From assembly GCA_045599485.1 (NCBI GenBank), contig JAZRWA010000097.1, positions 19,240-59,239 on the forward strand: DNA of 40,000 nucleotides, given 5' to 3'. Shown here piece after piece: positions 5,757 to 30,527 of the stretch; positions within the stretch are counted from its first letter, which is position 1, and every line of letters begins with the position of its first letter. The notes under the pieces are model-generated. The model did not search any database. It was not told the DNA's origin and saw nothing but the letters and a program-made list of their open reading frames with translations. The position numbers and the translations under genes were made by a program. This stretch comes from Clostridia bacterium (GTDB lineage Bacteria; Bacillota; Clostridia; Christensenellales; Aristaeellaceae).

Positions 5757-8026
5757 CAGCACACCTCCGATGTGGTAAGCATATGTTCAAGTAGCTGGAG
5801 AGCGATCTTTTTTCCTGCAGGACCGATTTCGGCCACCGGACCGGTACAGCCCGGGCAGCCATCTTCACAATCGCATCCCAGCACGACAGTTTTGCAATGT
5901 GCCAATAAAACTTCGCGCATTTTGTAGGCTTTTTCCGCCAGACCAATGCCGCCGGGGCAGGTATCGTACAAAATGATGGTGGACTTTTCCGTAAACGGAC
6001 ACTTGACCTGATAGCTGACCGAAATATCGCGCGGGGAGCACATCAGATACAGCGGAGACACGATTCGAAGCAGATTGGCAATGCCCAACATACCGCCCTG
6101 AAGTGAATCCTTGTCGTAGCGCGCAGCAACGGCAGGATCGAGCGTCCACCAGACGGCATTGGTGTGCATTTCGCTCTCGGGAAGCCGTACAGGACCGTAA
6201 CCAAGGTTTTCGCCTGTATCCAGCTTCATTTTTTTGAAAAGCTTGGTGATGGCGGTAACGCTGATATCACCCCAGGCGGCGCTTCCGCACTGCTCGGTGA
6301 TATCGAGCAGAGAAAGGCTCACATTGAGGTCTGCATCGGTATAATAATCCACCTCAATACGGCGTACAAAGGCTTTGCAGGCGTTGAAATCCAGCTTTTC
6401 CACTTGGTATTGCAGACCTTCGTGCATGTAAATGGCATTTTCGTGAAGCAGCATGGGCACGGTGAAACGATCCATTTCGCCAATGACGCGCACATGTGTG
6501 GGATCGGTAATGTCATTGATCAGGAAGTTTTCCGCCATGGCGGTACGAAGGGAGATCTCGCTGGCGGGGAATTCTTCGGCCTGCCAGAACCATGTATCGT
6601 CCACACGACGAAGGATATCCGATTCTTCCAAAAAGCCCAGCATTTCGTCATATCCCGGAGCGGAGCCAAAGGTTTCGTTCTGCTTGAAGGGCAGCTCATA
6701 AGCGGAGCATTTGAAATGATTGAGCAGAACATAAAGGTTATCGGGGTTGAGAAGGGCATTTTCCGGACTTTGTGAGAAGAAATACTGCGGATGAGCGACG
6801 ATGTATTGATCCAGGGAGGCGGAGGAGGCGACCAGTACGGTAAGACTCGTATCCTTGCGGCGACCGGCTCGTCCGGCTTCCTGCCAGGTGGCGGCGATGG
6901 TTCCCGGATAGCCGCACAGAACACAAGCCTGAAGGCTTCCGATATCCACACCAAGCTACAACGCGTTGGTGGAGATGACGGTACGAATCTCGCCCTTTCG
7001 CAGACCTGCCTCGATCTGATGGCGTTCACTGGGCAGATATCCGCCACGATAACCGCGAACGGTATCGGCAACGCCGAGGCTGTTGCGTGCACCGTCCTTG
7101 AGCCGACGGGTGAGCACCTCAACCTGTACGCGTGATTTGGCAAACACGATCGTAGAAATGCCGTTTTTCTGCAGGATACCGGCAATGCGGCAGGTTTCGT
7201 TCAAAACACTTTTTCGGATGCCCAGCTGACGATTGACGACGGGCGGATTGTAGAAAACAAAGTGTTTTTCGCCGCTTGGCGCGCCATTATTGTTGATGAC
7301 GGTGACGGGACGCCCAATCAGCATTTCCGCCAGTTCCTGCGGGTTGGCAATGGTGGCGGAGCAAAGGATGAAGCGCGGATGACTTCCGTAAAACTCACAA
7401 AGACGCAGCAAACGACGCAGAACGTTGGCCAGATTGCTGCCGAATACACCGCGATAGGAATGAATTTCATCAATGACGATGTAACGAAGGTTTTCAAATA
7501 GCTTGACCCAGCGGGTGTGATGCGGCAAAATGCCGGAATGAAGCATATCGGGATTGGTGACGACTACGTGCCCGGCTTGGCGGATCGCCCTGCGGGCGGT
7601 ATCGGGCGTATCACCGTCGTAGGTATAGGCTTTGATATCCGCCCCGAGAAGCTGGATCAGATCGTAAAGCTCACTGACCTGGTCCGCAGACAGGGCCTTG
7701 GTGGGGAAAAGATACAGGGCACGGGCATCGGGGTCGCGCATGATCTCGGACAAGATCGGCAGATTATAACAAAGTGTCTTGCCGGAGGCGGTGGGGGTGA
7801 CAACGACGAAGTCTTTTCCCTGCGCGGCGGCGGTTACGGCCTCGGCCTGATGGGTGTAAAGCTTGTGAACGCCTCTTTGGTTCAGCGCAACGGGAATGCG
7901 CTCATTGAGACAAGCAGGCCATTCGGCATAGCGGGCAGGAGAGGCCGGGTCGGTATGCCAATGGGTGACGCAGCTCATGAAGGATTCATCCTGCCTGAGT
8001 ACGTCCAGAAGCTGATCGATATTCAT
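5756..8026 (-). CDS. DEAD/DEAH-box helicase with C-terminal DUF1998 (YprA/MrfA-like), one in-frame TAG at 6956-6958
   Basis: ORFs 6956..8026 and 5756..6949 share a frame. Walker A (TPTASGKT), DEIH box and QEAGRAGRR are present. The C-terminal Cys cluster (CDCEDGCPGC) is typical of DUF1998. The junction reads TNAL-TAG-LGVDIGSL. The joined length of 756 aa is family-typical. Confidence 0.85.
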
Positions 8027-10014
8027 GCTTGTTCCTTTCCAATCAGTTTGAAAAACTCTGTTTCGTCTATTACGGGAATGCCGAGAGAAAGGGCTTTCTC
8101 CAGCTTGCTTCCGGCCTTTTCTCCGGCCAATACATAGGCGGTTTTTTTGCTTACGGCGCTGCCTGCTGTGCCGCCGTGCGCACGGATGAGGTCTTCCGCT
8201 TCGTTGCGGGAGAGGGACGGAAGGGTGCCGGTGACGACCACGGTTTTGCCGCTCAGGGGCAGTTGTACTTCGGATTGAACAACAGCGGTTTCAGAGGGAC
8301 GTACATCGGCTTGAAGCAGACGGCGAACCATGTCACGGTCTTCCGGGAAAGAAAAGAAATCCACAATACATTGCGCGACCACATCGCCGATATCGGGAAC
8401 CTGAAGCAGGTCATCGACCGTTGCGGTCATGACTTTTTCAAGTGTGCCGAAATGTGAGGCGATGTCTCTTGCGGTGCCGCGCCCGACATTGGGGATACCA
8501 ATGGCAAACAGGAAGGCATCCAAAGAGCAGTTGCGGCTGCTTTCGATGGCGGAAAGCAGATTGGCAATGCGCTTCTCCTTAAAACCGTCCAGCAATGCAA
8601 GCTTTTCGGTCGTCAGAAGATAAAGATCGGCGGGGTCACGGACACCGCATGTATCGTACAACAGGTCGGCAGTCTTTTCGGAAAAGCCAGCGATGTTCAT
8701 GGCGTTGCGGGAAGCAAAATGCGCAAGACGATCTACCGCCTGCGGACGGCAGTTTTCGCGGTTGACACAGTACAGATTGGCTCCGCGTTCGACCAGCGGC
8801 TGACCGCAGGAGGGGCATACGGTGGGCTGTAAAATAGTGCGGCCCTCAACACCGTTTTCCACACGGCCTGTGATTTCGGGGATGACATCGTTGGAACGGC
8901 GTATCCATACCGTACAGCCGATACGCAGATCCTTGCGCTGGATATCACCCATGTTGTTGAGGGTGGCACGCTGTACGGTGACACCGGAGAAATCGACCGG
9001 GGAAAGGTGTGCCAAGGGCGTCAGCTTGCCGGTACGGCCCAACTCCCAGGTGACATCTTCCAGGACGGTGGTGTTTTCTTCCGCGGCAAATTTGAGCGCC
9101 ACGGCCCAGCGGGGAAATTTATCGGTATAGCCGTAACGCTCTCGCGTTGCGGTATCCTGAATTTTGATGACGGCACCGTCGATAAGAAAATCAAGCGAAT
9201 CCCGAGCGGCCTCAATACTGCGAACGGCCTCAATGACTTCCGAAGAAGTGGCTGCTTCACGGAAAAAGGGACTGACGGGAAAGCCCTGTTCCTTGAGAAA
9301 ACAAATCATTTCACTCTGATTGCTGTAGGGAGGATTGTCGATGGTGCCGATTTCGTAAAAGAAGGTGCTCAGATGCCGCTCTGCAGTGACCCTGGGATCA
9401 AGGTTACGAAGCGCTCCGGCGGCGCCATTGCGAGCGTTTTTGAGGGGCATTGCGGCGGTTTTATTGTATTGTTCCAGTGCGGACAGGCGCATGATGCATT
9501 CGCCGTGAACTTCGATCAATCCTTTGTAGGGGATGGAAAGCGGGATGTCACGGATGGTGCGGGCCTGCGCCAGAATGGCTTCACCGACCGTTCCGTCTCC
9601 GCGGGTAGCAGCCTGCACCAGAAGACCATCCCGATAGGTCAGATTGATGGTCAGGCCGTCCAGCTTGTATTCAATGCCAAAACGAAGCGGAGGCAGCCCG
9701 GAAAACTGCTGCCACTGCTTTTGCGCGCGGTTCAGCCAGTCCAGAAGCTCCGGTTCGCTCTGCGTTTTATCCATGCTCCAAAGCGGATGCAGATGGCGAT
9801 GCTTGGCGAACTCTTCCAGCACTTCGCCGCCGACACGGTGTGTAGGCGAATCGGGCAATACCTGACCAAGCTCTTTCTCCAGTGCCAGCAGTTCATCGTA
9901 CAGGCGATCGTACTGCACATCAGCCATGATAGGGGCATCAAGGGTATAATAGGCCCGGGCAGCTTCGTTCAGCTGATCGGTCAGCGCCCGAAGGCGGGCT
10001 TCTTTCTCGTTCAT
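8023..10014 (-). CDS. ligA: NAD-dependent DNA ligase
   Basis: 663 aa. Adenylation region (EYKLDG), zinc-finger cysteines (CPSCG...C..C), HhH and C-terminal BRCT region. Its stop overlaps the helicase start (ATGA). Confidence 0.95.
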   Translation of the reverse strand: MNEKEARLRALTDQLNEAARAYYTLDAPIMADVQYDRLYDELLALEKELGQVLPDSPTHRVGGEVLEEFAKHRHLHPLWSMDKTQSEPELLDWLNRAQKQWQQFSGLPPLRFGIEYKLDGLTINLTYRDGLLVQAATRGDGTVGEAILAQARTIRDIPLSIPYKGLIEVHGECIMRLSALEQYNKTAAMPLKNARNGAAGALRNLDPRVTAERHLSTFFYEIGTIDNPPYSNQSEMICFLKEQGFPVSPFFREAATSSEVIEAVRSIEAARDSLDFLIDGAVIKIQDTATRERYGYTDKFPRWAVALKFAAEENTTVLEDVTWELGRTGKLTPLAHLSPVDFSGVTVQRATLNNMGDIQRKDLRIGCTVWIRRSNDVIPEITGRVENGVEGRTILQPTVCPSCGQPLVERGANLYCVNRENCRPQAVDRLAHFASRNAMNIAGFSEKTADLLYDTCGVRDPADLYLLTTEKLALLDGFKEKRIANLLSAIESSRNCSLDAFLFAIGIPNVGRGTARDIASHFGTLEKVMTATVDDLLQVPDIGDVVAQCIVDFFSFPEDRDMVRRLLQADVRPSETAVVQSEVQLPLSGKTVVVTGTLPSLSRNEAEDLIRAHGGTAGSAVSKKTAYVLAGEKAGSKLEKALSLGIPVIDETEFFKLIGKEQA

Positions 10015-10029
10015 TTGAAACCTCTCGTG

Positions 10030-12306
10030 TTAATCATCCAGCTTGACGATGGGGGCGATGGAAAGAGAAAATTGCTTTTCACCGAATACAGGAAAATCAA
10101 TGCTTATGCGGGCAGAAGGACCTTCGCCGCTGATCTTGCGAACAATGCCTTTGCCGAATTTTCTGTGAAGGACATGATCACCGACGGAAAAAGCCTGGGT
10201 GAAGGCAGGAGAGGGGACTGGGGAAGAGAAACCGCGCTGTACGCCGGGGATGCCGAGCGGGTTGGCAGCTTTTGCGGGAACAGCGTTTCTGCCGGCAGGG
10301 CTGGTGAATGAATTGCCCGGTTTTGCGGGAGCAATGCCTTTGTTGACAGGAATGCGGCGGGGCTGTATCATCCCGTATATAAACGGGGAGGCAAAGCCGC
10401 TGCGTTCCTCCTACAGTAGCTTTGCGGGAATCTGCTCGATGAAGCAGGAGCGTGCGTTGAACTGAAGCTGATTGAACATCATGCGGCGCCGGGCATAGGA
10501 CAGATGAAGCTTTTTGCGTGCGCGGGTCACGCCGACATAACAAAGACGGCGTTCCTCCTATAACCCTTCAGGCTCAGCCATGGCCCGCGAGGAGGGGAAA
10601 ATGCCTTCCTCCATGCCGGGCATGAAAACGGTATCAAACTCCAGACCTTTGGCAGAATGCAGCGTCATCAGGGTTACATATGCGGGAGCATCCTCCTGCG
10701 CGTCCAGATCCGTGATGAGGGAGACGCTTTCCAAAAAAGCCGCAAGCGTTTTGATACTCTCCTTTTGTTCAAACTCGGTTACAGCTCCCATGAATTCACG
10801 GATGTTTTCAACGCGGGTCTGATCTTCTTCCTCATCGCTGTTGGCGTACTGAAGGAGAAGACCGCTGTCATCGATCACTTTCTGAACAAACTTGGAGAGC
10901 GGCATGATGTCTTTTTGCAGCATCAGCCCGATCATCAGTTCTGAAAATGCGGAAAGGCTCTTCTTGGCTTTGGCGCCGAGTGTGGATGGAGGCGTGAGCA
11001 CAGCGGCATAGAGGGACATTCCCTTGTCCGCCGCGTAGGTGGAAAGCTGGTCGATGGTGGCATCGCCGATGCTGCGCTTGGGCACATTGATGATACGATT
11101 GAGCGAAAAGTTGTCTGCGGGGTTTTCCAGAAAACGAAGATAGGCGACAATGTCGCGGATTTCCTTACGGTCATAGAATCGAGTACCACCGAAAACACGG
11201 TACGGGATACCGTTGGTCATGAAGGTCTCTTCCAGCACACGGGACTGGGCATGGATGCGGTAAAGGACTGCGGTCTTGCCAAGCTCCGATGTGGAGAAGG
11301 CCTTGATCTTATTTGCGATCCAGCGGGCCTCAACGCGTTCATCCTCGGCAGAGTAGAGGGTGATCTTCTCTCCGTCGGCACTGTCCGTCCACAGGCGTTT
11401 TTCTTTCCGCCCAAAGTTATGTTTGATGATATCGTTCGCCGCGGCGAGAATGTTGCCGGTTGAGCGGTAGTTTTGTTCCAACTTGATGACTTTCGCGTCG
11501 GGATAATCCTTTTCAAAGTTGAGAATATTGCGGATGTCGGCGCCGCGCCATGCGTAAATGGACTGGTCGTCATCGCCGACAACACAAAGGTTGCGGCTGT
11601 CTTGCGTCAGAAGACGGATGATATGGTATTGGGCAAAGTTGGTGTCCTGATATTCATCCACATGGACGTACCGGAATTGCTGCTGATAGTAACTGAGAAT
11701 GGGCGGATGATCAATGAAAAGCTGCAATGTCTTGAACAAAAGATCGTCAAAGTCCAAAGCGTTGGCGGCTTTCAGATGAGCCTCATATGCCACGATGACA
11801 TCGTGAATGCGTTGGGTTCGATAAGTTTTATCTGCATGAGCCAGCCATTCATCGGCATTCCAGACATGGTTTTTCATGTCGGAAATGTAGGCCGAGACCT
11901 CTTTGGGAGGGAGAAATTTTTCGTCAATGTCCAGTTCCTTGAGAACAGCTTTGATGACGCGAAGCTGATCATCCTGATCATAAATGGAGAAGGAACGGCT
12001 GTATCCGAGTTTTTCGATATCACGGCGAAGGATACGGCAGCAAATGGAATGGAAGGTACCGATCCATGTGCTGTCCAGTGATTTTCCGGTCAGCGTTTCG
12101 ATGCGCCTGCGCATTTCACGGGCAGCCTTGTTGGTAAAGGTGAGAGCAAGAATATGATAAATGCTTACACCATGCTCCAGCAGGTTGGCGATGCGATAAG
12201 TGATGGTGCGCGTTTTTCCGCTGCCGGCACCGGCCAGAATGAGGACAGGGCCATTGAGCTGTTCGGCGGCCTGTTTTTGCATGGGGTTCAGGTCATTGAG
12301 ATTCAT
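10030..12306 (-). CDS. pcrA: ATP-dependent DNA helicase PcrA (UvrD family), two in-frame TAGs at 10558-10560 and 10411-10413
   Basis: The N-terminus MNLNDLNPMQ...AGAGSGKT starts at the ATG at 12306. ORF 10558..12387 ends at a TAG inside motif VI (EGL-TAG-EERRLCYVGVTRA). The same frame continues through a second TAG (IPAKLL-TAG-EE) into ORF 10030..10371, which encodes the PcrA C-terminal tail (GDHVLHRKFGKG). The joined length is 758 aa. TAA stop. Confidence 0.9.
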
Positions 12307-12420: not shown

Positions 12421-12496
12421 TGGCACCTCCTGCCGGATTCGAACCGGCGTTTCAGCCTTGAGAGGGCCGCGTCCTAGGCCTCTAGACAAAGGAGGC
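12421..12496 (-). tRNA. tRNA-Glu (anticodon CUC)
   Basis: Hand-folded cloverleaf from GCCTCCTTTGTCTAGAGGCCTAGGACGCGGCCCTCTCAAGGCTGAAACGCCGGTTCGAATCCGGCAGGAGGTGCCA. It has a Glu-type D-arm (GTCTAGAGGCCTAGGAC), anticodon loop CTCTCAA, a 4-nt variable loop, T-loop GGTTCGAATCC and an encoded CCA. G1 pairs with U72 as a wobble. Confidence 0.85.
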
Positions 12497-12499
12497 AAA

Positions 12500-12573
12500 T
12501 GGCTGGGGAACAAGGATTTGAACCTTGACAGTACGAGTCAGAGTCGTAAGTGCTGCCGTTACACCATTCCCCA
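12500..12573 (-). tRNA. tRNA-Gln (anticodon CUG)
   Basis: Cloverleaf from TGGGGAATGGTGTAACGGCAGCACTTACGACTCTGACTCGTACTGTCAAGGTTCAAATCCTTGTTCCCCAGCCA. It has the U1-A72 pair, G73 discriminator, anticodon loop CTCTGAC and an encoded CCA. Confidence 0.85.
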
Positions 12574-12605
12574 ACACGGTTGTGCAGCTCGTAACTGCAA
12601 GAATT

Positions 12606-12634
12606 ATTATACGCGTGGGGAGTGTATTTGTCAA
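12606..12634 (-). promoter_or_regulatory. Consensus sigma-A promoter driving tRNA-Gln/tRNA-Glu
   Basis: The minus strand reads TTGACA (12634-12629), a 17-nt spacer and TATAAT (12611-12606), about 30 nt upstream of the tRNA-Gln 5' end. Confidence 0.6.
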
Positions 12635-12728
12635 CCCCCAAAATGCATTTTTTTGAAGAATAATCAAAAGATTGATCCGGAATAGGAAAACGGGGAAGGT
12701 AATGAGATGAATGGACGGAAGAGGATCG

Positions 12729-12766: not shown

Positions 12767-14191
12767 TTATCGGAAGTAACGTTTCTGAGGACGAATGCGA
12801 TCCGGATGACGGTCACGCTTTTCGGCTTTGCGATGACGTTTCAGACTACGCACCAGACGGATGAAAAGATACAGTGCGATGAAGGGGATCAGAAGAATGA
12901 TGATCAGCTCAAGGCTGAGCGGTGGAAAAGGGTTGGCATCATTCCGGACGGCCTCATAGATCTCATCCAGGGATGGAAAATCCAGCACACGGCGGGCGAT
13001 GCTGCGGGTTGCAACCAGCTCATACTCGACAATGTTACCGGATTCTGCCAGATAGGTGGCGGTACCGACTACTTCTCCTGCAATGATGGGAGCGATAGGA
13101 GCGTGCGTGTATTCAATGGTCAGCAGGTCATTGATGTTGGAGACCAGATAGTCGATACGGCCGGCCTGGGTGATGATCGTATCATCATCGGAAGGGTCAA
13201 CTTTGCGGAGGGACAGCTCTAGCTCGCCGAGCAGGGGATCCTTCAGATCGTATTTGGCAATGCTGAGTACCTTGGGAGAAAGGTTGTACAGCTGCGTGAC
13301 AGAGGTGGAAAGATACTGGGTAAAGCCGTACTCCATGAGTCGTTTGGTATCCCGCCAGCACTCGTTGTAGCTGGCGCAGTTGAAAACGACCGAAATGAAG
13401 GTGACACCGTCTTTGGTGGCTGAACCGACAAAGCAGCGGCCGGCCTGAGAGGTATAACCTGTCTTAATGCCGTTGCCGTACTGATAATAGCTGGATTCGC
13501 CTCCGAAAAACTCCAGCATACGGGAGGAGATGCTGCGCGATTTGTGGATGTTGCTCTTGGGCAGGGCATAGGTCACGGTGGAGGCGATTTTGCGGAAGGT
13601 TTCGTTCTGCATGGCTTCACGGGCGATGATGGCCATATCCCGGGCGGTGGTGTAATGGTTTTCGTCGTGAAGACCGTTGGCGTTGGCGAAATGGGTATTG
13701 CGGCAGCCGAGACTGGCTGCATACGTGTTCATCAGGTCAACGAAGGCGGGGATGCTGCCCGAGATGGTTTCGGCGATGACGTTGGCACCGTCATTACCGG
13801 ACCGCACCATGGTTGCAAAAAGAAGATCTTTGAAGTTGATCTCTTCACCTTGCGACAGAGGAATGGTGGAAGAGTCGGCGGAAATCTGAAGTGCGGTACT
13901 GCTTGTGACGGCGGTCGAACTCAAATCTCCCATCAAAAGGCCGAGGTAGGTGGTCAGAATCTTGGTGGTAGAAGCCGGATACATGCGGGCATCGGCGTTC
14001 TTTTCGTAGATGACCATGCCGGTGTTGGCTTCGATCAGAATGGCGGCGCTGCATCCCAGATCGACATCATTGAGGTTTTCGGGATGGTTTGCGTCATAAT
14101 TGGAAAGTGCAGCCAGAGCAGGAGAACACCATAACAACAATGCCAGCAGCATGGCAATGACTCCCGTCAAGCTTTTGCGTATACGAAGCAT
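12767..14191 (-). CDS. D-alanyl-D-alanine carboxypeptidase (S11 / PBP5 family) with a C-terminal membrane anchor
   Basis: 474 aa. Signal peptide (AMLLALLLWCSPALA), active-site SxxK (PASTTKILT), SGN motif (VRSGNDGA) and KTG (IKTGYT). A hydrophobic segment lies near the C-terminus. Confidence 0.85.
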   Translation of the reverse strand: MLRIRKSLTGVIAMLLALLLWCSPALAALSNYDANHPENLNDVDLGCSAAILIEANTGMVIYEKNADARMYPASTTKILTTYLGLLMGDLSSTAVTSSTALQISADSSTIPLSQGEEINFKDLLFATMVRSGNDGANVIAETISGSIPAFVDLMNTYAASLGCRNTHFANANGLHDENHYTTARDMAIIAREAMQNETFRKIASTVTYALPKSNIHKSRSISSRMLEFFGGESSYYQYGNGIKTGYTSQAGRCFVGSATKDGVTFISVVFNCASYNECWRDTKRLMEYGFTQYLSTSVTQLYNLSPKVLSIAKYDLKDPLLGELELSLRKVDPSDDDTIITQAGRIDYLVSNINDLLTIEYTHAPIAPIIAGEVVGTATYLAESGNIVEYELVATRSIARRVLDFPSLDEIYEAVRNDANPFPPLSLELIIILLIPFIALYLFIRLVRSLKRHRKAEKRDRHPDRIRPQKRYFR

Positions 14192-14217: not shown

Positions 14218-15396
14218 TTAATCGTCTATAATGACAGGACGGCAACGATAGAGACCTCCAAAGGGGAGACCGGCCCCGAGGGACCATAGGTCATCGGCTC
14301 TTTTGTCAAGTGCGGCGCATACCGGGTCTGTAACATCAGATAGTGATCCGGCCAAAGGGAGACCGGCGGTATGGATATTGCGAAGGGTCTGCGCGGCACT
14401 GCGGCGGAAACCGAGAAGATAGGCGTATGGCGGAAGAGCGGGGAGCTTCTCTGCTTCGGTATCCAGCAGCACATGAGTCAAAAGACGGCTGATGCGTGTC
14501 CAGGTATAGCGGCGTGTTTTGCAGGCAGCGATCATGCTGTCACGGGTCAGCTCATCCGCAGCGCTCTTCAAACGGTTTTGCAGCCCTTCGGAGCATTCAG
14601 GCAGATTCTTTCGCAGCGGGTTGCTGCGAATGGATAATCTTAACAGCGGTGTGAGGGCTTCCGGAGGATGCAAACGCCCGGCAGAAAGCTCCTCGAACAG
14701 GACTGCTGCGGCGGTGGAAGGCATGGCAGCGGCGGCGCTTTCAATATCACGGTTCAGAATGGCTTGCCTGACGGCAGAGGCGGATGGCAGTGTAGTATCA
14801 GACAGTTGTTTGCTGTGATAATCGCTTTCGCGCACCACCGGGCAAAGGGAAAATGAGGCATTCAAACGCCGACAGGCTCGGGCATAACAGATGGCCAAAG
14901 CCGTATTGGGCCCCGAAAATGCAGAGGGATCGGCATGCAGACAATTTGACAGCGATTTCCCGCAAGCGGAGGCGAATCCATTGCCGGCGGACAGCTCTTC
15001 GTGTAAAAGAGCAGTGAAAGCATCGGTGGGATGCTCAAGCAGTTCCGCGGCAGCTTCGTAGAACGGCTGCCCTTCAGGCTCGATACCGAAACTCAGATGC
15101 GTCACGACACCGCAGGCTTTCAGAATACTGACACCGGACAGAGCGAAATGCTCCGCATCCCGTACGGAGAAGGCAACCGGCAATCCAAGCACGATATCGG
15201 CGCCGTTCTCAAGTGCCATGCGTGCCCGGCTGTGCGGTGTGAGCAAACCGGGAGTACCCCTTTGGGTAAATTGCATGCTCATGACGCTGATCACACAGGC
15301 TGCGCCGCTTTGCTGCCGTGCTTCGCTCAGGTGATGCGCGTGCCCCAGATGGAAAGGATCATATTCGGCTATTACGCCGCAAACGGCGTTTGTCAT
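14218..15396 (-). CDS. tmcAL: tRNA(Met) cytidine acetate ligase (YlbM/TmcAL family nucleotidyltransferase)
   Basis: 392 aa. The N-terminus GVIAEYDPFHLGHAHH...VMSMQFTQRG matches the HxGH nucleotidyltransferase signature of the YlbM family. TAA stop. Confidence 0.75.
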   Translation of the reverse strand: MTNAVCGVIAEYDPFHLGHAHHLSEARQQSGAACVISVMSMQFTQRGTPGLLTPHSRARMALENGADIVLGLPVAFSVRDAEHFALSGVSILKACGVVTHLSFGIEPEGQPFYEAAAELLEHPTDAFTALLHEELSAGNGFASACGKSLSNCLHADPSAFSGPNTALAICYARACRRLNASFSLCPVVRESDYHSKQLSDTTLPSASAVRQAILNRDIESAAAAMPSTAAAVLFEELSAGRLHPPEALTPLLRLSIRSNPLRKNLPECSEGLQNRLKSAADELTRDSMIAACKTRRYTWTRISRLLTHVLLDTEAEKLPALPPYAYLLGFRRSAAQTLRNIHTAGLPLAGSLSDVTDPVCAALDKRADDLWSLGAGLPFGGLYRCRPVIIDD

Positions 15397-18273: not shown

Positions 18274-19601
18274 GGATGCTCCTGTTCTGTATTGCCAAGC
18301 AGCGCGGTATAAAGACCGGCGCCGCTGTTGGGTACGATTCGGACGGGGAAGGGAAGACGGGCACGGAAGGTTTCAAGCGGCAGATCGTCCAGGAACAGAT
18401 CGCCTGCTTCGCGCAGAGTCACGCTGCACAGCAGCATTTCATCCACGTCCTGCGAGGCTGTCTGCTCGGAAATGTCGCCGCCGCACAGAAGACCGGTAAC
18501 GGTAACAGTGGTGCCGAAAAAATGATTATCGATCGCCTGTACGGTAATATCGACACCTTCGGGCCCATACTCACGGAGCCAGCGGCGCATATAAGGCGCG
18601 ATACTGGTGCCGCAGGGGATCAGTATACGGCGGGGGCGTGCGGTCTCGCCGCTGTGGGCGGCTCGTGCTTCCAAAAAACCGGTGAGGAACTGCCGCATCA
18701 GACCGACTCCGTTTTCAATCTGCGGAAAGTTTTCGTAGTACTCTTCATCCGGAAGATCCCTTCCGGCGATGCAAAGCATTTCATCTGAGGGGAAAACAAA
18801 GCGGGTGCCGAGTTTTTCCAGAAAACGATTCTGCCATTTTTCGCAGATGGCCAGAACCTCTTGTGCCTGCTCGCGCGTGTAGGGCTTCAGCGGGTAAAGC
18901 TTTTCACGGCATTTGGTCAGTCCAACAGGCACGAGTGCGGCACTTTGCGCTGCGGGGATGAGATGAGACAATGTTTCAAGTGTTTCTTCCAGAACAGCGC
19001 CGTCGTTGATGCCGGGGCACAGCACGATCTGGCAATGGAAATGCGTGCCGTTTTCCTTGAGCCTTTCAAGACGCGGAAGCAATTGCGCGGCATCAGGATT
19101 ACGCAGCATCCGGGCGCGGACCTACGGGTTGGTGGCATGTACGGAAATGAAAAGAGGCGAGGCGTGACGCTTGAGGATGCGTTCAAATTCACGATCATCG
19201 ACGTTGGTAAGGGTGATGAAGTTGCCCATCATCAGGGACATGCGCCAGTCATCGTCTTTTACGTACAATGACTTGCGGCAGGCGCGCGGCATCTGGTCAA
19301 TAAAGCAGAAGATGCAGTGGTTTTTGCATATGCGGGGAGTAATGGTCATGCTGTCCCCGAAGGAGAGCCCGAGCGGTTTTTCGGGCTGTTTGACAAGCTC
19401 GACATTCCAATCGCGGCCATCTGCTTTGCGCACATGCAGAATGATGTGCCGGCGGGCAGACAGTGCTTCATAATCGACGGAGTCGATCAGATCTTCACCG
19501 TTGAGGGTGAGAAGGGTATCTCCTGCACGCAGACCGCCGCGCCATGCCGGGGAACCGGGACGAACGAAAGTAATCAGATGTTCCAACGCATACTCCTCCA
19601 T
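18270..19601 (-). CDS. DUF512 protein (PDZ + radical-SAM-like domain), one in-frame TAG at 19122-19124
   Basis: ORFs 19122..19601 and 18270..19109 share a frame. PDZ-like N-terminus (GSPAWRGGLRAGDTLLTLNG) and Cys motif CKNHCIFC. The junction reads SVHATNP-TAG-VRARMLRN. The joined length is 443 aa. The position upstream of der-plsY is conserved in Firmicutes. An alternative TTG start lies 15 nt downstream of the ATG at 19601. Confidence 0.8.
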
Positions 19602-19707: not shown

Positions 19708-20907
19708 TCAAAGTTTGAAAACATCGACCTCGGTACCGACCGGGAGGGGACCGACTCCACCGGGAATATCCACCAGACAATTGCAGCCGATCATGGAAGA
19801 AATGGAACCGCTTGAATGGTTATCGGAGTTAAAGTAAAGTTCACTGCCATTGAAACGAGCACGTGCAAGACGGCGTACTTTGCCGCCTTTAGGGAAGGGT
19901 TGCGCCAGACGGGCACGGAAACGGACAGGGGCGAAATCGCTCTGACCGGCCAGTTTTGCCAGTACAGGTCGGGCGAAAATTTCAAAACAGGCAATGGCGG
20001 CATAGGGATTGCCGGAAAGACAGATCATCGGCTTTCCCTGACAGGTAGCGGCAAGAAGCGGGGAACCGGGTTTCATGGCAATCTTCCAAAAGAGGCGTTC
20101 GGCCTCCATCATGGGCAGAACCTGATGCATAATATCTTTTTTGCCGACCGAAACGCCGCCGGTAGTGATGAGGATATCCGCCTGCTGCAGCGATTCCAGC
20201 AGGGCGGAAGCGGCCTGCTGGGGCTCATCAGCCACATTGGAGAGCACCTGTGTGCGGATGCCCAGCTCAGCCATGCGAGCGGTCAGATAGCCCTTGCTGC
20301 TGTCGTAAATTTTTCCGAAAGACAGCTCCTCACCTGCTTCAATCAGTTCGTCACCGGTACAAAGCAGCACGGCTGTGGGACGGCGAAAGACTTCGACTTG
20401 CGTGACGCCGATGCCGCAGAGCGTTCCGATATGCGCAGGAGAGATCCTGTCACCGCGTTTCAGCACAACAGTGCCTTCGGGAAGATCTTCACCGGCCCAG
20501 CAGATGTTTTGGTTGTGCCCGACGGCAGCATAAATCTCGACGGTGTCCATCCCTTCGTTGGTGTCCTCCTGACGAATGACACAATCGCAAGCCGCGGGGA
20601 CGGGGGCACCGGTCATAATGCGAAGGGCTTCGCCGGGCTTGGGAGCAAAAACGGTTCCGCAGCCGGCACAGGCTTCTCCGATGACGGTGAGGCGGACAGG
20701 CTGCTCACGGGTCGCAGTGACAATGTCCTCACTGTGCAGGGCATAGCCGTCCAGGGGGGAACGGTTGAAGGGCGGAAGATTGACACGGCTGGCAACATCG
20801 GCAGCGGCGATCCGCCCCAAAGCGTCACAAAGCGGAAGAACTTCGGTCTCCTTGACAGAGGATGTATGGCTGAGCAGCAGCTCAAGAGCATTTTCCAAGG
20901 TTTCCAT
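19708..20907 (-). CDS. moeA: Molybdopterin molybdenumtransferase MoeA
   Basis: 399 aa. MoeA family features (SPLDGYA, ITTGGVSVGKKD, MKPG, LSGNP). TGA stop. Confidence 0.9.
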   Translation of the reverse strand: METLENALELLLSHTSSVKETEVLPLCDALGRIAAADVASRVNLPPFNRSPLDGYALHSEDIVTATREQPVRLTVIGEACAGCGTVFAPKPGEALRIMTGAPVPAACDCVIRQEDTNEGMDTVEIYAAVGHNQNICWAGEDLPEGTVVLKRGDRISPAHIGTLCGIGVTQVEVFRRPTAVLLCTGDELIEAGEELSFGKIYDSSKGYLTARMAELGIRTQVLSNVADEPQQAASALLESLQQADILITTGGVSVGKKDIMHQVLPMMEAERLFWKIAMKPGSPLLAATCQGKPMICLSGNPYAAIACFEIFARPVLAKLAGQSDFAPVRFRARLAQPFPKGGKVRRLARARFNGSELYFNSDNHSSGSISSMIGCNCLVDIPGGVGPLPVGTEVDVFKL

Positions 20908-24688: not shown

Positions 24689-24712
24689 GAGAAATCGTTC
24701 ATGCAAAAGCGT

Positions 24713-25765
24713 TTAACCCTTTACTGCAAAAGCGTAGATGGTTTGACTGCGATAGAGATCGCCTTTTTTGAGAATGACGGAAGGAAAACCGGGATGATGG
24801 ATCGCGTCGGGATGATGCTGCGTTTCGAGAGCAATGCCAGCATAGGGCCCATAATGCGCATGACCGGCGGCATTGCTGATGTCAAAATGCTGACCGGTGT
24901 AGACCTGGACGGCAGGTTCGGTCGAGAGCAGATGCATCACACGTCCGCTGTCAGGGCAGGACAAAGCACCAAAGAGCCGCAAGCCTTCGCCCTCGATGGG
25001 AAAATTGAAGTCATAGCCGTGCCGGAGCACCATGATCGGCAGCTACGCACTGCGGCGCAGACCTTCACCAATGTTCAGCGGGGTACGGAAATCCACCGGC
25101 AGACCGTCGACGGAAAAATGGCGGCCTGTGGGGATCAGATCATCGTCCGTCTCTGTCATGGTAGCTGCGTTGAGCTGCAGCGAGTGATTCAGAATATCGC
25201 TGCCGCTGCCAAGATTGAAATAGCTGTGGTTGGTCAGATTGATAATGGTATCGGCGTCGGAAACGGCGCTGTAGCAAATGCAAAGCTCGTTACGGTCGGT
25301 CCATGCGTAAGTGATCTCCACATGCAGATTGCCGGGAAAGCCTTCCTCACCATCGGGACTGTCATAGGACAGAACCAACAGGTCAGCCTCAACGCCTTCC
25401 TGAATGGAAGCGTTGAACCAACGGTGTTCAAAACCCTGAAGTCCGCCGTGCAATGTGTTGCCGTGATCATTGGCGGCAAGATGGTAATGTGTGCCGTTCA
25501 GATCGAAAGCGGCACCGCCGATACGGTTGCCCACGCGGCCGATGGCAGCACCGAGATAACAGCCATCCTCGGTGGCGTAACCGGAGACATCGTCAAAGCC
25601 AAGGCAGACATTGCCGAGCCGGTCATTGCGGTCAGGTACCTTGACGGATACCACGTGCGCGCCGTAATCACAGACAGAAAGGGAAGCGCCGGAGGCATTG
25701 GTGAGGGTATAGAGTCGGGCTTCCCTATGATCAAGGAAACCGAAAGAAGAAACGGTAATGCTCAT
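24713..25765 (-). CDS. galM: Aldose 1-epimerase (galactose mutarotase), one in-frame TAG at 25043-25045
   Basis: ORFs 25043..25846 and 24713..25033 share a frame. AAGGAG RBS precedes the ATG at 25765. Family motifs GRVGNRI, NDHGNTLHGG, GYDFNF and GIALETQHHPDA. The joined length is 350 aa. TAA stop. Confidence 0.85.
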
Positions 25766-25775
25766 GGCTCGCTCC

Positions 25776-27605
25776 TTACTGCATGGTGAATTCGTCGGCG
25801 CGACGGAGCAGCGCGGCATTGGAAGCGGTCTTTTCAAACATGTCATCCAGAGCCGTCAAAGCCTCTTCGGGGGTCTTTTTGAACAGATACGAACGAATCT
25901 TTTCAGCGGCAGCGGCCATGTCGGGGCTTTGCATCAGCTCACGCTTGCGGGTGGTGCTGCGGCAAAGGTCAATGCTGCCTTTGGCTGTCAGATGTACTTC
26001 CATATTTGCGAAGCCGCGGAATTCATCCGCAATGGCGGCATCTAGGGGATTGCCGGTCTCGGAAGCCAACACCGCGATGACCGTCAGACTGCCGCCTTCC
26101 TTCAGTGCCCGGGCGGCACCGAAGATACGCTTGGGTTGATTCAGACAGCCTGCAGCGAGACCACCGGTCATGGTGCGGGCGTTCTGCGGCGCGCATTCGT
26201 TATAGGTACGACACAGGTTGGTCAGGTTGTCGATGACCACGACAACGTTTTTTTTCATTTCAGCCATGCGCATGGCATGGTGAGTCACCAACGCGGCGGC
26301 CAGAGTGATGTTTTCCGAAGGAGTGCCAAAGCCGGAGGCAATGACTTCGCCGGGCAGATTTTCACGGGCGGCGGTGATATCCTCGGGACGTTCACCGGGC
26401 AAAAGGGTGATCATTTGCGCGTCGGGGCAGCGTTCCATGACAGATGCGCAGATATCTTTGAGCAGTTCGGTTTTGCCGCAACGGGGTGGGGCTACGATCA
26501 GGGCACGCTGACCGAGACCAATCGGGGCCATCAGGTCGATGGTGCGCAGCATTTTCTGAGAGGGCTGGGAAGCCAACGGAATCTGCACGGTGGGATAAAC
26601 GGCGGTAAGTGAATCAAAGGGCACGCGGGCGGGCAGTTCACCGACTTCGATGCCGTTGACGTGTGTCACATAGATGAGCATGGGCTTTTTTTCGTTTTCG
26701 CCCTGCATGCGGAATTTGCCGGACACCTGATCGCCGGTCATCAGCTTGAAACGGCGAATCTGGGCGTGGGAGACGATGATATCGTCGATGGAAGGCATGT
26801 AGTTATGAACATGGAGCACGCCGGAACCATCTTCCAGAATGTTCAGCGTACCGCAGCCATCGATTTCGGGGGCGGCAAGCAGATCGGGCAGCGTTCCGGA
26901 AGTGGACTGCACGGGCTCACGCTGAGCCGGAGCCTCCCGCGGAAGCACAGGCGGACGCGGAGGAACGGACTCGGAGAGTACGCTGGACAGCGGCAGACGA
27001 TCCTCGGCCATGGGCTGTTCCATACGCGGACGCTCTTCCTCCACAGCGTTATCGGTGGAAGCATCCGGACCAAAACGATTGACTGTCTGGAAAGGCCGGG
27101 CGGCAGGACGCCTGTCCCCATAGGGTGAAGGCTGACGGCGTTCACCGAAGGGAGAGGCAGAACGCTGCTGATAAGGCGAGGCAGCGGTGTTTTGCTGCGG
27201 ACGGGGATTGCTCCAGGCACGGACGCCCTCCAGAGAGAAAACAGGCTTGTTGGTGCCGGGAACGTTGCCGCGGTTGACGACTGCGGGACCGTGCGGCGGC
27301 AGAGGAGAGGCCGTTCTGGAGGGAGTATGCAAGGGCACACGTGTGAAGGAGGGTGTGGGGGAGGTGATACCGGGATCCGGTTCGTCATTCGACGGCATGG
27401 GAACGGGGCGAATGACAGGGGCAGATGCTTCTGTTTGAGGTTCGGGCTTGACGGGAGAAGGAAGCTCATCCTTGATGAGTTCTTCACACAAGCGATCCAC
27501 AATGCCAGATTTTGAAATGCCTGCGCTCAGACGGATATCATTTTCACGCGCGATCTCACGCAGCCGGATGACGGTCATGCTTTCAAAGCCTTCTCTGGTG
27601 TACAA
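25776..27605 (-). CDS. rho: Transcription termination factor Rho with a long low-complexity N-terminal insertion
   Basis: The C-terminal RecA-type ATPase has Walker A (APPRCGKT) and Rho RNA-binding/Q-loop regions. The N-terminus has a Rho_N-like helix (TVIRLREIAREN). AAGGAGG lies 8 nt before the TTG at 27605, with an alternative ATG at 27578. TAA stop. Confidence 0.9.
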   Translation of the reverse strand: MYTREGFESMTVIRLREIARENDIRLSAGISKSGIVDRLCEELIKDELPSPVKPEPQTEASAPVIRPVPMPSNDEPDPGITSPTPSFTRVPLHTPSRTASPLPPHGPAVVNRGNVPGTNKPVFSLEGVRAWSNPRPQQNTAASPYQQRSASPFGERRQPSPYGDRRPAARPFQTVNRFGPDASTDNAVEEERPRMEQPMAEDRLPLSSVLSESVPPRPPVLPREAPAQREPVQSTSGTLPDLLAAPEIDGCGTLNILEDGSGVLHVHNYMPSIDDIIVSHAQIRRFKLMTGDQVSGKFRMQGENEKKPMLIYVTHVNGIEVGELPARVPFDSLTAVYPTVQIPLASQPSQKMLRTIDLMAPIGLGQRALIVAPPRCGKTELLKDICASVMERCPDAQMITLLPGERPEDITAARENLPGEVIASGFGTPSENITLAAALVTHHAMRMAEMKKNVVVVIDNLTNLCRTYNECAPQNARTMTGGLAAGCLNQPKRIFGAARALKEGGSLTVIAVLASETGNPLDAAIADEFRGFANMEVHLTAKGSIDLCRSTTRKRELMQSPDMAAAAEKIRSYLFKKTPEEALTALDDMFEKTASNAALLRRADEFTMQ

Positions 27606-27621
27606 CGGGGCATCCTCCTTG

Positions 27622-28626
27622 TTACTTGGTCGTATAGGGGTTGATCACAACAAGCACATCACGGTTGACGGCCTGCTCGACCCAATGGGAAAAATCACCG
27701 TAAAGGGTTTCATCGGCACCTTCAAAGCCGGCGTCCAGCGCGGCCCGCAGCAGCTTTTGCCTGGAAAGCGTATAGGTGTTGAAGGAAATGGCGGCGGCAC
27801 AGCCGGGCCGCAATGCTTCCCGCCAGGCAGGCAATGCCCGGGCCAGCAGCTGCTACAGGGTGCCGATGCCTTTTCCATGAGATGGGGCATGCTGTACGCC
27901 ATAGGGCAGATCGGCAATGAGCAGGTCGGCCCGCGTTTTTTTGGTCAGCAGACCGGTCATGGCGGTATCCGCACGGATGAAACTGATGGATTGGGCAAAG
28001 GGCGGTTTCAGAGTATAGCACTCTGTCGGGGCGTTTTTACCCTGAGGCAGCGTCATTGAAAGGCGCTGCTCGGCATAGCCGAGCTTGTTATATTGAAAGA
28101 AGCGTTTGGTAAACTGGGCGCCTTCGGTCAGAGCAGTATCATCGCAGTCGATGCCGATGGCATCCATGCCGTTTTCCAATGCACAGAATAGCCCGGTGCC
28201 GTGTCCGCAGATGGGGTCAAGCAACCGCTTGTGCGGCTCAAAAGGATGGGAGCTGCAGCTCAGAGCCAGATTGATCAGCAGGCGTGTAAAATCGGAATTG
28301 GTTTTTCCCTTGTATTTGAGTACATCGGGCATGCCGGAAGGAAAGGCGGAGGTGAAGGGAAGATCGAGCGGTTGCAGTAACCCATCCTCCTGCAGAAGAC
28401 ACAGCATATACAGTTCCGAGTGGCGGCATAGAAAAGAAAGCTTTTCGATATCCAACTCGTCCGTGTCAAAGCACAAAAATGGCGCGCCGCCAAGGGATAA
28501 AGAAAGAACATCGGCTTTCACACCACAGGCATGCAGCATACAGCGCAGTTCTTTCACGGAGAGCGTCAGCAGGGATTCCTGATAACGCGCGTTTGAATGA
28601 GCGCGCAATTGAAAAGCGTATCGCAT
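27622..28626 (-). CDS. Class I SAM-dependent N-methyltransferase (UPF0020/RlmL-like, motif IV DLPYG), one in-frame TAG at 27853-27855
   Basis: ORFs 27853..28629 and 27622..27834 share a frame. Motif I (LLDPICGHGTG) and motif IV (LIADLPYG). The junction reads GKGIGTL-TAG-QLLARALPAW. AAAGGAG RBS precedes the ATG at 28626. Confidence 0.7.
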
Positions 28627-28786
28627 CAAATGCTCCTTTTATGCATCATCAAGCTTTAAGCCATTATAACATGTTTTTGACATGACGGCAAGACAAAGAA
28701 ATGACGGAATTTCTTTTTTTGACTGGTTGTAAAGAAAAGAAATGTTGTAAAGACAGGAGGCATCCGGCTGAGTACGATCTCCCATC

Positions 28787-28816
28787 TTGAAACAAAGAAA
28801 GCTAAAGTGCTATAAT
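28787..28816 (+). promoter_or_regulatory. Extended -10 promoter upstream of the small secreted-protein gene
   Basis: TTGAAA (28787-28792), 18-nt spacer, TGcTATAAT (28808-28816). It leaves a leader of about 145 nt. Confidence 0.45.
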
Positions 28817-28965
28817 AACTCTGGTGAAAGACGAAAAAAGTTAGCGGCGCAAGGATCGAAAGGTCAAATGAGATATAGCCGTGAAGGTGCTCGTGAACGT
28901 TTTTCGGGTATCGTCAGGAAGAGCGGCAGCGGCGTATGAGACAAGGTATTCAAGGAGGAAACAAC

Positions 28966-29430
28966 ATGAAAAAGGCGTTTGTTTTGATACTTGTACTGAT
29001 GATGATTCTGTCTGTCGGGGGCGCGACGGGAGAAACGGTGATGCTGGGCAGCACCGGGTTTAGTCTGAACCTGAATGGACTGTCCTTTTCCAAGCCGAAC
29101 GGAGCAGATGCCCCTGATGATGCAGTATTGATGTTCGGCAATGCGGATGGGACAATGCGCGGTGTGGTTTATGAATACGCCTCCGAAGGGCTGACCCTCA
29201 AAAATCTGGAAAATGAGGTGCTTGCGAAAGCCGAAGGTGTGACGGCCACCGGTTACACTGAGATCAACGGAGTGGAGTGCTTCTGGGTGGTGATGGACGA
29301 CTTCGGCGATAACTTTATCGTCTACTACACCATTGAGGGAAACAAAATGGTAAAGTTTGAATTCTATTATAAAGGCGCTGAGGCTGCGAGCCTGACCGGA
29401 ACGATTATGGACACACTTCATCGGAATTGA
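28966..29430 (+). CDS. Small secreted protein of unknown function
   Basis: AAGGAGG RBS and ATG at 28966. Signal peptide MKKAFVLILVLMMILSVGGATG. 154 aa. I recognise no family. Confidence 0.55.
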   Translation: MKKAFVLILVLMMILSVGGATGETVMLGSTGFSLNLNGLSFSKPNGADAPDDAVLMFGNADGTMRGVVYEYASEGLTLKNLENEVLAKAEGVTATGYTEINGVECFWVVMDDFGDNFIVYYTIEGNKMVKFEFYYKGAEAASLTGTIMDTLHRN

Positions 29431-29481
29431 TCGGAGACAAGAAACAGCAAAACGATGGGGGAATGTATACCGAATAATCAA

Positions 29482-29510
29482 TTGACAATGGCAGGACTGC
29501 CACCTATAAT
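29482..29510 (+). promoter_or_regulatory. Perfect-consensus sigma-A promoter of the 6S-like RNA
   Basis: TTGACA (29482-29487), 17-nt spacer, TATAAT (29505-29510). No CDS follows on this strand. Confidence 0.6.
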
Positions 29511-29516
29511 AGTATC

Positions 29517-29724
29517 ACAGAGGATGCTCCTGGGATGTACGCCAGCGTTTTGTTTTTACCCACATCTCTTAAAACGGAGCCCGGGTCGGACATGGACGTC
29601 ATGCCCCCGTGCCGCAAGGCATGCCAGGGGAAGGCGGTAAGTGAGCCGCAGGGCACCGGCCTGCTGTTTACATAGCGGGTGAAAAAACCAAGCGCAGCGG
29701 CATCATCGGGACTCCTCTTTTTTT
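29517..29724 (+). ncRNA. ssrS: Probable 6S RNA (SsrS), about 205 nt
   Basis: A stand-alone transcription unit between convergent or unrelated genes. The 5' end (AGAGGAUGCUCCUGGGAUGUACGCCAGCG) and 3' end (GCGCAGCGGCAUCAUCGGGACUCCUCU + U7) can form an interrupted closing stem. Both ends resemble my recollection of the E. coli and B. subtilis 6S termini (..CUGAGAUGU.. / ..CGGCAUC..GGA..). Size is appropriate. No covariance-model check was possible. Confidence 0.55.
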
Positions 29725-29728
29725 GTGC

Positions 29729-29768
29729 AAAAAAACGGACGCAACCGTAAGGACACCGTCCGTTTTTG
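29729..29768. terminator. Bidirectional terminator between the sRNA and truA
   Basis: ACGGACG (29735-29741) pairs with CGTCCGT (29757-29763). An A-run lies upstream and T5 downstream, 10 nt from the truA TAA. Confidence 0.5.
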
Positions 29769-29777
29769 ATATATGGA

Positions 29778-30527
29778 TTAAAGAAAACGCTCCGGGTCAT
29801 AGTCGACCGCGGTCAGGCAAAGTCCGCGTGCCGGGGCGGTGGGCCCTGCAGCGGGACGGCTTTTTGCGGAGAGAATGCCTGACATGTTGTTGGCATCCAT
29901 ACGACCTGCACCGACCTAAAGCAGAGTGCCGGTCAGGATGCGGACCATGTTCATCAGGAAGCCATCACCGTGAAAGATGAGGCGAAGCCGGTCGTTATCC
30001 TGTTCGATGCGGATGGAATCCACCGTTCGAACTGTCGATTTATCGGAATGCAGATTGGTAAAGGAACGAAAATCGTGTTTTCCGATAAGCTGTGATGCGG
30101 CAAGGCGCATGGCATCAAGGTCAAGCGGAAGCGGCAGAGCATAAGCATATTTGCGGTCAAAAACAGGACGCGCATCACCGCAGTAGCAGGTGTAGGTATA
30201 GGTTTTGCCGGAAGCGTGAAAGCGGGCATGGAAGCGCTCGGGGACTGTGCGGACCGCAAGGACACAAATATCATCGGGAAGATAGCGGTTCATGTACTCC
30301 CGAATCTGTTCGACGGAGAGGGTTGTGTTCAGATGGGCGTTAGCGGTCATGGCAAGGGCATGAACACCGGCATCGGTGCGCCCCGCGCCGATCAATTGCA
30401 CAGGAGCGTCTGTCATGCGGGCAAGAACATTTTCCAATCGCCCCTGAATGGTATCTGTATCGGGCTTACGTTCCCAGCCGTGGTAACGTGTGCCGTCATA
30501 TTGAATGGTAAAAAGATAATTGGTCAT
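29778..30527 (-). CDS. truA: tRNA pseudouridine(38-40) synthase TruA, one in-frame TAG at 29916-29918
   Basis: ORF 29916..30527 has the catalytic GAGRTDAGVHA motif and ends at a TAG inside the conserved MVRILTGTLL-x-VG motif. The same frame continues (VGAGRMDANNMSGILSAKSRPAAGPTAPARGLCLTAVDY) to TAA at 29778-29780, recovering the conserved R..AG.TAPA.GL.L motif. The joined length is 249 aa. Confidence 0.9.

Follow-up and report, generated by a model that had tools for sequence, protein, structure and literature searches.

In gut phages, among them the crAss-like and Lak phages, TAG has been recoded to glutamine ('code 15'), and the bacterial codes 4 and 25 of Mycoplasmatales, Hodgkinia and Absconditabacteria/Gracilibacteria read UGA as tryptophan or glycine. 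To our knowledge, UAG in cellular bacteria is otherwise known only as the codon for pyrrolysine. Here we describe a different use of UAG in a 40-kb window from a Clostridia bacterium (the whole stretch analysed, 40,000 nucleotides; assembly GCA_045599485.1, contig JAZRWA010000097.1, positions 19,240 to 59,239). The window, which is bacterial chromosomal DNA, has a GC content of ~53%, and its minus strand carries most of the genes. Nine of its codons are in-frame TAG triplets. It is almost certain that UAG is a sense codon in the shallow clade of uncultured, Christensenellales-like Clostridia from gut and rumen that the window forms with at least four other assemblies, and comparison with homologous proteins and sister strains suggests that it mainly means glutamate, which we consider likely.

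According to a screen of >250,000 genomes, all known bacterial changes of the genetic code reassign UGA (Shulgina and Eddy, 2021; PMC8629427), and a 2026 paper on Eggerthellaceae also concerns UGA reassignment only (PMC13462651). Our full-text search of open-access papers and bioRxiv found no report that a cellular bacterium reads UAG as glutamate or as another of the canonical amino acids. This agrees with an earlier interpretation of the window, made from its letters alone (hereafter the sequence-only reading), which held that TAG as glutamate is undescribed in bacteria. In eukaryotes, UAR codons have been reassigned to glutamate in the nuclear codes of peritrich ciliates and Blastocrithidia nonstop (PMC12153298), and changes of UAG are known from phyllopharyngean ciliates (PMC11687900). 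In Escherichia coli lacking release factor 1 (RF1), natural readthrough of UAG inserts mainly Gln, Tyr and Lys (PMC4333366), a near-cognate pattern that is a misfit with the conserved glutamate columns described below.

The present case resembles the amber-recoded gut phages in its in-frame sense TAG codons, its occurrence in animal-gut microbiomes and the retention of TAA and TGA as stops. It differs in that the TAG codons lie on a cellular chromosome (with ligA, pcrA, rho, der, plsY and tatC), that glutamate instead of glutamine appears to be inserted, and that a search for suppressor tRNAs found none beside the TAG-bearing genes. Furthermore, glutamine accounts for only 0–2% of the residues at conserved columns, and GAG partners of TAG are as frequent as CAG partners. 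With the eukaryotic UAR codes (of the type of NCBI tables 30 and 31) the window would share the change of UAG to glutamate. In those codes, however, UAA changes with UAG, whereas here no in-frame TAA was found and TAA ends 15 of the 33 genes. They also belong to another domain of life, with eRF1 there as against RF1 and release factor 2 (RF2) in bacteria.

The bacterial UGA codes are similar in that a bacterial stop codon was turned into a sense codon, there accompanied by a tRNA with an altered anticodon and by loss of the release factor that had served the codon. In contrast, the codon here is UAG, RF1 instead of RF2 is at stake, the amino acid appears to be a different one, and the genome is neither AT-rich nor visibly reduced. 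The pyrrolysine system of some anaerobic Firmicutes and archaea also reads UAG as an amino acid in bacteria, yet pyrrolysine is largely confined to methylamine methyltransferases and needs pyl genes, whereas the sites described here are glutamate positions of unrelated housekeeping proteins. Finally, RF1-deleted or genomically recoded E. coli and amber suppressor strains use UAG as a sense or unassigned codon, decoded by suppressor or near-cognate tRNAs (PMC4333366, PMC4434889). Those laboratory strains are engineered, whereas the present case is natural, inherited across species-level divergence and pointing to glutamate. The case thus shares its probable amino acid with the eukaryotic codes, its codon and habitat with the gut phages and its host domain with the pyrrolysine users, and is a member of none of these groups.

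TAG inside genes of the window and its sister strains

Our gene set comprised the 33 genes judged real in the window, together 12,058 in-frame codons, translated with TAG as X. TAG occurs nine times in frame in these genes, whereas TAA and TGA do not occur in frame at all. As terminators, TAA is used by 15 and TGA by 18 of the 33 genes, and TAG by none. Interruption by TAG alone argues against random decay or sequencing error, which would not be confined to one triplet. For comparison we used sister strains from other assemblies: strain A (run SRR27361835; loci L043, L044 and L053), strain B (ERZ27247129; L045, L046 and L054), strain C (L047) and strain D (L048), and one more locus of the clade (L055). 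The nucleotide identity of the window to strain A or B is ~88%, and that between A and B is 94%. The nine TAG codons of the window are:

1277–1279, plus strand: codon 101 of a Cof-type HAD phosphatase (977–1807, Pfam Hydrolase_3); GAG in strain A, column variable among relatives
6956–6958, minus strand: codon 357 of an MrfA/YprA-type helicase (5756–8026), in the motif STNAL-X-LGVDIG; also TAG in strain A
10411–10413, minus strand: codon 632 of PcrA (10030–12306), in IPAKLL-X-EE; GAG in strains A and B
10558–10560, minus strand: codon 583 of PcrA, the first E of motif VI (EEERRLxYVGxTRA); also TAG in strains A and B
19122–19124, minus strand: codon 160 of a radical-SAM/DUF512 gene (18270–19601); also TAG in strains A, B and C
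25043–25045, minus strand: codon 241 of the galactose mutarotase GalM (24713–25765); also TAG in strain A
27853–27855, minus strand: codon 259 of a methyltransferase-like gene with a DLPYG motif and no Pfam hit (27622–28629); also TAG in strains A and D
29916–29918, minus strand: codon 204 of TruA (29778–30527), in GTLL-X-VGAG
35734–35736, minus strand: codon 75 of a ZorB/MotB-like gene (34984–35955), in its coiled-coil part; CAG in strains A and B and in locus L055

Six of these codons had been cited in the sequence-only reading, and all six indeed lie in frame on the minus strand at the positions given there. It had missed the sites in the HAD phosphatase, the methyltransferase-like gene and the ZorB-like gene, two of which lie outside the range that it covered (6956–29918).

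Chance does not explain the in-frame TAGs, since off frame TAG is the rarest stop triplet on the coding strand, with 27 of 880 occurrences (3%). TGA makes up 742 of these 880, and TAA and TAG are both scarce. The base directly 3′ of TAG is G or C at all nine sites of the window, against a baseline of ~0.6 for first codon positions (p ~0.01). This preference is not strict in the sister strains, where an A follows the TAG at LigA codon 639 and a T follows that at codon 237 of DacB.

A search with TruA retrieved a 203-residue product that is 95% identical and stops precisely at the TAG. Eight different sequences, drawn from assemblies of NCBI, ENA and Logan, make up the 90% cluster of this product, and every one of them is truncated at the TAG. 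In total, six TAG sites are common to the window and sister strains: TruA 204, PcrA 583, MrfA 357, DUF512 160, GalM 241 and methyltransferase 259. Between the window and strain A, the synonymous divergence (dS) is ~0.6, and the ratio of nonsynonymous to synonymous divergence (dN/dS) 3′ of six TAGs is 0.02–0.18, like that of the segments 5′ of them. Such purifying selection indicates that the parts downstream of the TAGs are translated. Together with the recurrence of the TAGs in sister assemblies, it shows that TAG is read as sense throughout this shallow clade. Among the genes concerned are pcrA and truA and, in sister strains, also ligA and dnaB.

Terminator usage can be compared across this one genomic neighbourhood. 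None of 43 sister-strain orthologues ends with TAG, against 8 of 111 orthologues (~7%) in non-recoded relatives, including pcrA and trmH of the closest relatives. Because the relatives use TAG for only 7% of their stops, the lack of TAG terminators among the 33 genes of the window is weak evidence by itself, and becomes meaningful once pooled with the sister strains. The nearest species-representative genomes are metagenome-assembled genomes (MAGs) of uncultured Clostridia/Christensenellales from rumen and gut, with a LigA identity of at most 73%. No in-frame TAG was found in the orthologous genes of such relatives in 42 loci. A relative with 75% identity (L049) had too few genes present to judge recoding.

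In strain A, a DUF4317 gene (L053, 10945–10950, minus strand) ends in ILP-TAG with a second stop codon directly after it. This TAG may be a former terminator that is now read through by one codon.

All public gene calls for the clade break up the genes that contain TAG. In the species-representative genome set, the species has no entry, and the closest match to its LigA reaches 73%. Its absence could be a side effect of quality filters applied to a genome whose code was not recognised.

The amino acid read at UAG

The columns of homologous proteins provide one line of evidence on the amino acid. At TruA codon 204, 118 of the 119 homologues carry E, as do the E. coli and Thermus TruA structures in the PDB. 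The column of PcrA codon 583 is E in all 31 relatives, with E in the PcrA and UvrD structures and S in UvrD1. At codon 357 of MrfA, all eight relatives have GAA or GAG, and the structures of Bacillus subtilis MrfA and Mycobacterium Lhr also have E. In line with these results, the sequence-only reading had placed glutamate in the family motifs of the helicase, of PcrA motif VI and of TruA, and on alignment these columns are invariant or nearly so. For GalM, it had argued from a motif (E/A)QL that glutamine was possible. This is contradicted by the close subfamily, in which codon 241 corresponds to E in 90, K in 4, D in 4, A in 3 and Q in only 2 of 112 homologues.

Other columns are less uniform. 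At codon 160 of the DUF512 gene, also given there as glutamate, the 119 homologues have D 71, E 25, A 16, K 3, Q 2 and N 2; the column is thus one of D or E and not of plain glutamate. Codon 259 of the methyltransferase-like gene falls in a column with E as the modal residue (35 of 143 diverse representatives, followed by L 21, A 17 and D 12), and the closest full-length homologue also has E. The assignment of E to PcrA codon 632 agrees with the PcrA/UvrD structures in the PDB (E/D/E) but not with the distant relatives, which are variable (Q 9, R 5, I 5, V 3, E 1). An additional TAG in DnaB of strain A aligns with an E of both Geobacillus DnaB structures. The sites that are TAG in some strains only lie in variable columns. 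For GalM, MoeA, TmcAL and PGA_cap, the sequences in the PDB alignments were too few or too divergent to inform by themselves.

A Codetta-style column check, as the sequence-only reading had proposed, was run as a sum of log-odds over the 11 sites of this neighbourhood that have columns, with and without down-weighting of the deep alignments. Glutamate came out as the best of the 20 amino acids. It led glutamine by 14–19 nats and whichever residue came second by at least 12 nats.

The turnover of codons between strains offers a second line of evidence. At twelve sites, the TAG of one or more strains stands against a sense codon elsewhere in the clade. The partner is GAG at six of them (HAD 101, PcrA 632, LigA 639, TmcAL 82, NT5C-like 16 and RlmI 181) and CAG at the other six (MrfA 69, MrfA 744, MoeA 241, DacB 237, g34 119 and ZorB-like 75). 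Those that carry a sense codon in the window are:

5795–5797, minus strand: codon 744 of MrfA; CAG in the window, TAG in strain A; R/K in relatives, Q in B. subtilis
7820–7822, minus strand: codon 69 of MrfA; CAG in the window and strain B, TAG in strain A; R/K/N in relatives
8098–8100, minus strand: codon 639 of LigA; GAG in the window, TAG in strains A and B
13481–13483, minus strand: codon 237 of the D-Ala-D-Ala carboxypeptidase DacB; CAG in the window and strain A, TAG in strain B
15151–15153, minus strand: codon 82 of TmcAL; GAG in the window, TAG in strains A and B; D in B. subtilis TmcAL
20185–20187, minus strand: codon 241 of MoeA; CAG in the window and strain B, TAG in strain A; S in E. 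coli MoeA
31052–31054, minus strand: codon 16 of an NT5C-like nucleotidase; GAG in the window, TAG in strain A
33460–33462, minus strand: codon 181 of an RlmI-like methyltransferase; GAG in the window, TAG in strain B
34623–34625, minus strand: codon 119 of the hypothetical gene g34 (34461–34979); CAG in the window, strain B and locus L055, TAG in strain A

If TAG meant glutamine, TAG and CAG would interchange by a silent transition, which should be the prevailing change, while GAG/TAG would be a rare replacement. If TAG meant glutamate, GAG/TAG would be the silent change. Comparison of the window with strain A at fourfold-degenerate sites gives rates of 0.28 for T>C, 0.09 for T>G, 0.16 for C>T, 0.04 for C>G and 0.105 for G>T, and among 9,809 aligned codons only 14 show a replacement between Glu and Gln via standard codons. 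With TAG as glutamine, we estimate that ~0.2 GAG-to-TAG events would be expected between the window and strain A, whereas three were observed. Among the eight TAGs of the window that were aligned in strain A, two correspond to GAG and none to CAG; the ninth, at ZorB-like codon 75, is CAG in strain A. Furthermore, because C>T is ~3.7 times as frequent as C>G, mutation of CAG to TAG would be the favoured route from glutamine to glutamate. Codon turnover therefore favours glutamate, and leaves room for some mixed decoding.

Several observations weigh against glutamate. The six CAG partners are somewhat more than we estimate for Gln-to-Glu changes alone, a count that is nevertheless within small-number noise. 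The five polymorphic sites that have columns give a flat likelihood, in which E minus Q is about −1 nat. The outgroups have R/K at MrfA 69 and 744 and mostly Q/R at PcrA 632, where glutamine would be more natural than glutamate. All of this evidence comes from ~20 distinct TAG sites in one genomic neighbourhood. In addition, no tRNA with anticodon CUA was found in the window and ~35 kb of additional clade DNA by ARAGORN, with default and relaxed settings, or by Rfam.

How do other explanations fare against these data? Under the standard code, the TAG codons would represent nonsense mutations, split genes, isolated cases of programmed readthrough, or errors made in sequencing or assembling a degraded MAG. 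The fragmentary public gene calls fit such a view, and the scarcity of TAG terminators in relatives deprives the 0 of 33 of much of its force. Yet only TAG interrupts the genes (nine times, against no TAA or TGA), identical TAGs recur in independent assemblies from different runs, and the downstream parts of genes such as pcrA and truA have kept a dN/dS of 0.02–0.18 across a dS of ~0.6, with ligA and dnaB also affected in sister strains. We regard the standard code as a very improbable explanation. Pyrrolysine, or another non-canonical residue, is hardly credible: UAG is indeed the pyrrolysine codon of some anaerobic Firmicutes, but the sites here are glutamate columns of housekeeping genes (pcrA, truA, mrfA and galM) instead of methylamine methyltransferases, and there are no pyl genes among the window and clade loci.

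Glutamine deserves closer consideration, since TAG and CAG interchange at six sites between strains, and this gives it a small residual chance. It would be delivered by a supE-like tRNA-Gln(CUA) through the glutamyl-tRNA synthetase (GluRS)/GatCAB route, as the usual outcome of phage amber recoding and of near-cognate readthrough. The CAG at PcrA 632 in close relatives and the Q at MrfA 744 of B. subtilis would also suit it. However, glutamine is found in 0 of 119 sequences at the conserved column of TruA, 0 of 31 in PcrA, 0 of 8 in MrfA, 2 of 112 in GalM and 2 of 119 in DUF512. Its likelihood lies 14–19 nats below that of glutamate, and the dominance of T/C transitions that it predicts (0.28 at neutral sites) is not seen, with six GAG partners overall. 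We therefore judge glutamine as the sole meaning to be improbable. A mixed meaning of glutamate and glutamine, possibly with other residues, has somewhat better prospects but still seems unlikely. It might stem from a Gln-type tRNA(CUA) that is charged with glutamate and then only partly amidated, or from loss of RF1 with reading by near-cognate tRNAs, such as the tRNA-Gln(CUG) and tRNA-Glu(CUC) encoded in the window, as in RF1-less E. coli, which reads UAG as Q, Y, K and some E (PMC4333366). The even split between GAG and CAG partners is in line with this, as are the failure to find a tRNA(CUA) and the strongly promoted tRNA-Gln(CUG)/tRNA-Glu(CUC) pair beside pcrA, which the recoded clade has and the relatives' loci lack at that place. 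Conversely, the oldest, clade-wide TAGs occupy near-invariant glutamate positions of essential enzymes, where a large fraction of Gln, Tyr or Lys should be harmful. Near-cognate reading is also inefficient and would favour Gln (through a G36–U wobble) over Glu, and the bias of C-to-T over C-to-G, by which Gln-to-Glu changes preferentially pass via TAG, can account for the surplus of CAG partners.

Glutamate as the main meaning of UAG in this clade is thus the reading that we consider likely, because homologue columns, TAG/GAG interchange and downstream purifying selection agree. This upholds the sequence-only reading, which had named glutamate as most likely without fully excluding glutamine.

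tRNAs and a possible route to the proposed code

Two tRNA genes, detected by both ARAGORN and Rfam, lie upstream of pcrA:

12500–12573, minus strand: tRNA-Gln(CUG), reading CAG
12421–12496, minus strand: tRNA-Glu(CUC), reading GAG

They form an operon (12421–12640, minus strand) with a perfect TTGACA-17-TATAAT promoter, and both genes encode the CCA end. The pair is located at the same place in strain A (L044, 7443–7595) and strain B (L045, 2150–2302). In the loci of the relatives, of which 31 include a pcrA match, no such pair lies within 10 kb of ligA. The two tRNAs serve precisely the codons that are one mutation away from TAG, namely CAG and GAG. We regard their position beside pcrA as a curious coincidence. 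The tRNA-Glu(CUC) has a G1–U72 wobble pair atop its acceptor stem and A37–A38 in its anticodon loop; otherwise it has a D-arm of the E. coli tRNA-Glu type and a variable loop of 4 nt. That this tRNA itself reads UAG was considered and rejected, since its C36 would need to pair with U.

JGI metagenomes and IMG/VR were searched with a pattern that combines a tRNA-Glu body and a CUA anticodon, and neither contained a match. Scanning the metagenomes with Rho likewise revealed no relative, and the clade is apparently absent from the JGI collection. The ~75 kb of window and clade DNA contains no release-factor gene, including that for RF1 (prfA), and no genes for GluRS or GatCAB.

Most Firmicutes lack glutaminyl-tRNA synthetase (GlnRS) and have a non-discriminating GluRS that accepts tRNAs with C36 or G36, while GatCAB recognises the U1–A72 pair. 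Recoding to glutamate would call for a dedicated tRNA with anticodon CUA, charged with glutamate. In a Firmicute without GlnRS, the non-discriminating GluRS would be the likely charging enzyme, since tRNAs with C36 or G36 are already among its substrates, and the glutamate on tRNA(CUA) would have to be left unamidated by GatCAB. RF1 would be lost or disabled. The low use of TAG stops in the surrounding lineage (~7%) may have made this change cheap. The observed turnover of new UAG codons with GAG would then be synonymous, and that with CAG a Gln-to-Glu change through the frequent C-to-T transition.

The sequence-only reading had suggested either a CUA tRNA of tRNA-Gln ancestry that escapes GatCAB or one derived from tRNA-Glu. 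A more specific version of the route above is that tRNA(CUA) descends from tRNA-Gln, is charged with glutamate by GluRS and escapes GatCAB fully or mostly. We consider a route through this indirect glutamine pathway rather unlikely. A residual glutamine fraction under this version would lead TAG to interchange with both GAG and CAG. If true, it would be the first natural change of a bacterial code by the uncoupling of a transamidation pathway.

More generally, if UAG means glutamate, a free-living gut Firmicute lineage has acquired a new bacterial genetic code, and natural lineages can abandon termination by RF1. As a young case, with few TAG codons and with non-recoded relatives at ~73% protein identity, it would still allow the order of stop depletion, tRNA change and RF1 loss to be read. 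The tRNA/synthetase pair responsible would constitute a natural glutamate-inserting amber suppressor. A practical consequence is that standard gene callers split these genes.

Other features of the window

In addition to the genes described above, the window contains recognisable der, plsY, rho, tatC and moeA/mobB genes, besides ligA, pcrA, truA, galM, the MrfA/YprA-type helicase, the radical-SAM/DUF512 gene, tmcAL and a ZorA/ZorB-like pair. The plus strand carries an ABC permease, the Cof-type HAD phosphatase, and rsmB-like and lysA-like genes. Three further features of the window are:

25776–27605, minus strand: Rho, with an N-terminal insertion of ~200 residues of Pro/Ser/Ala-rich low complexity ahead of the conserved RNA-binding and ATPase domains
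29524–29716, plus strand: 6S (SsrS) RNA, with an Rfam score of 50.2 bits against a gathering score of 46.4, adjoining the 3′ side of truA on the opposite strand
34984–37531, minus strand: a ZorA-like gene (PADLOC ZorA1, 1.7e-26) and a ZorB-like gene (ZorB1, 2.6e-70)

The ZorA/ZorB-like pair shows a likeness to the membrane motor of the Zorya anti-phage system, and no obvious ZorC or ZorD adjoins it. Many genes of the window are accompanied by near full-length 'shadow' open reading frames on the opposite strand. Examples are 2783–4006 (minus) against 2807–4042 (plus), 20–886 (minus) against 41–922 (plus), and 32782–34050 (plus) against 32824–34002 (minus).

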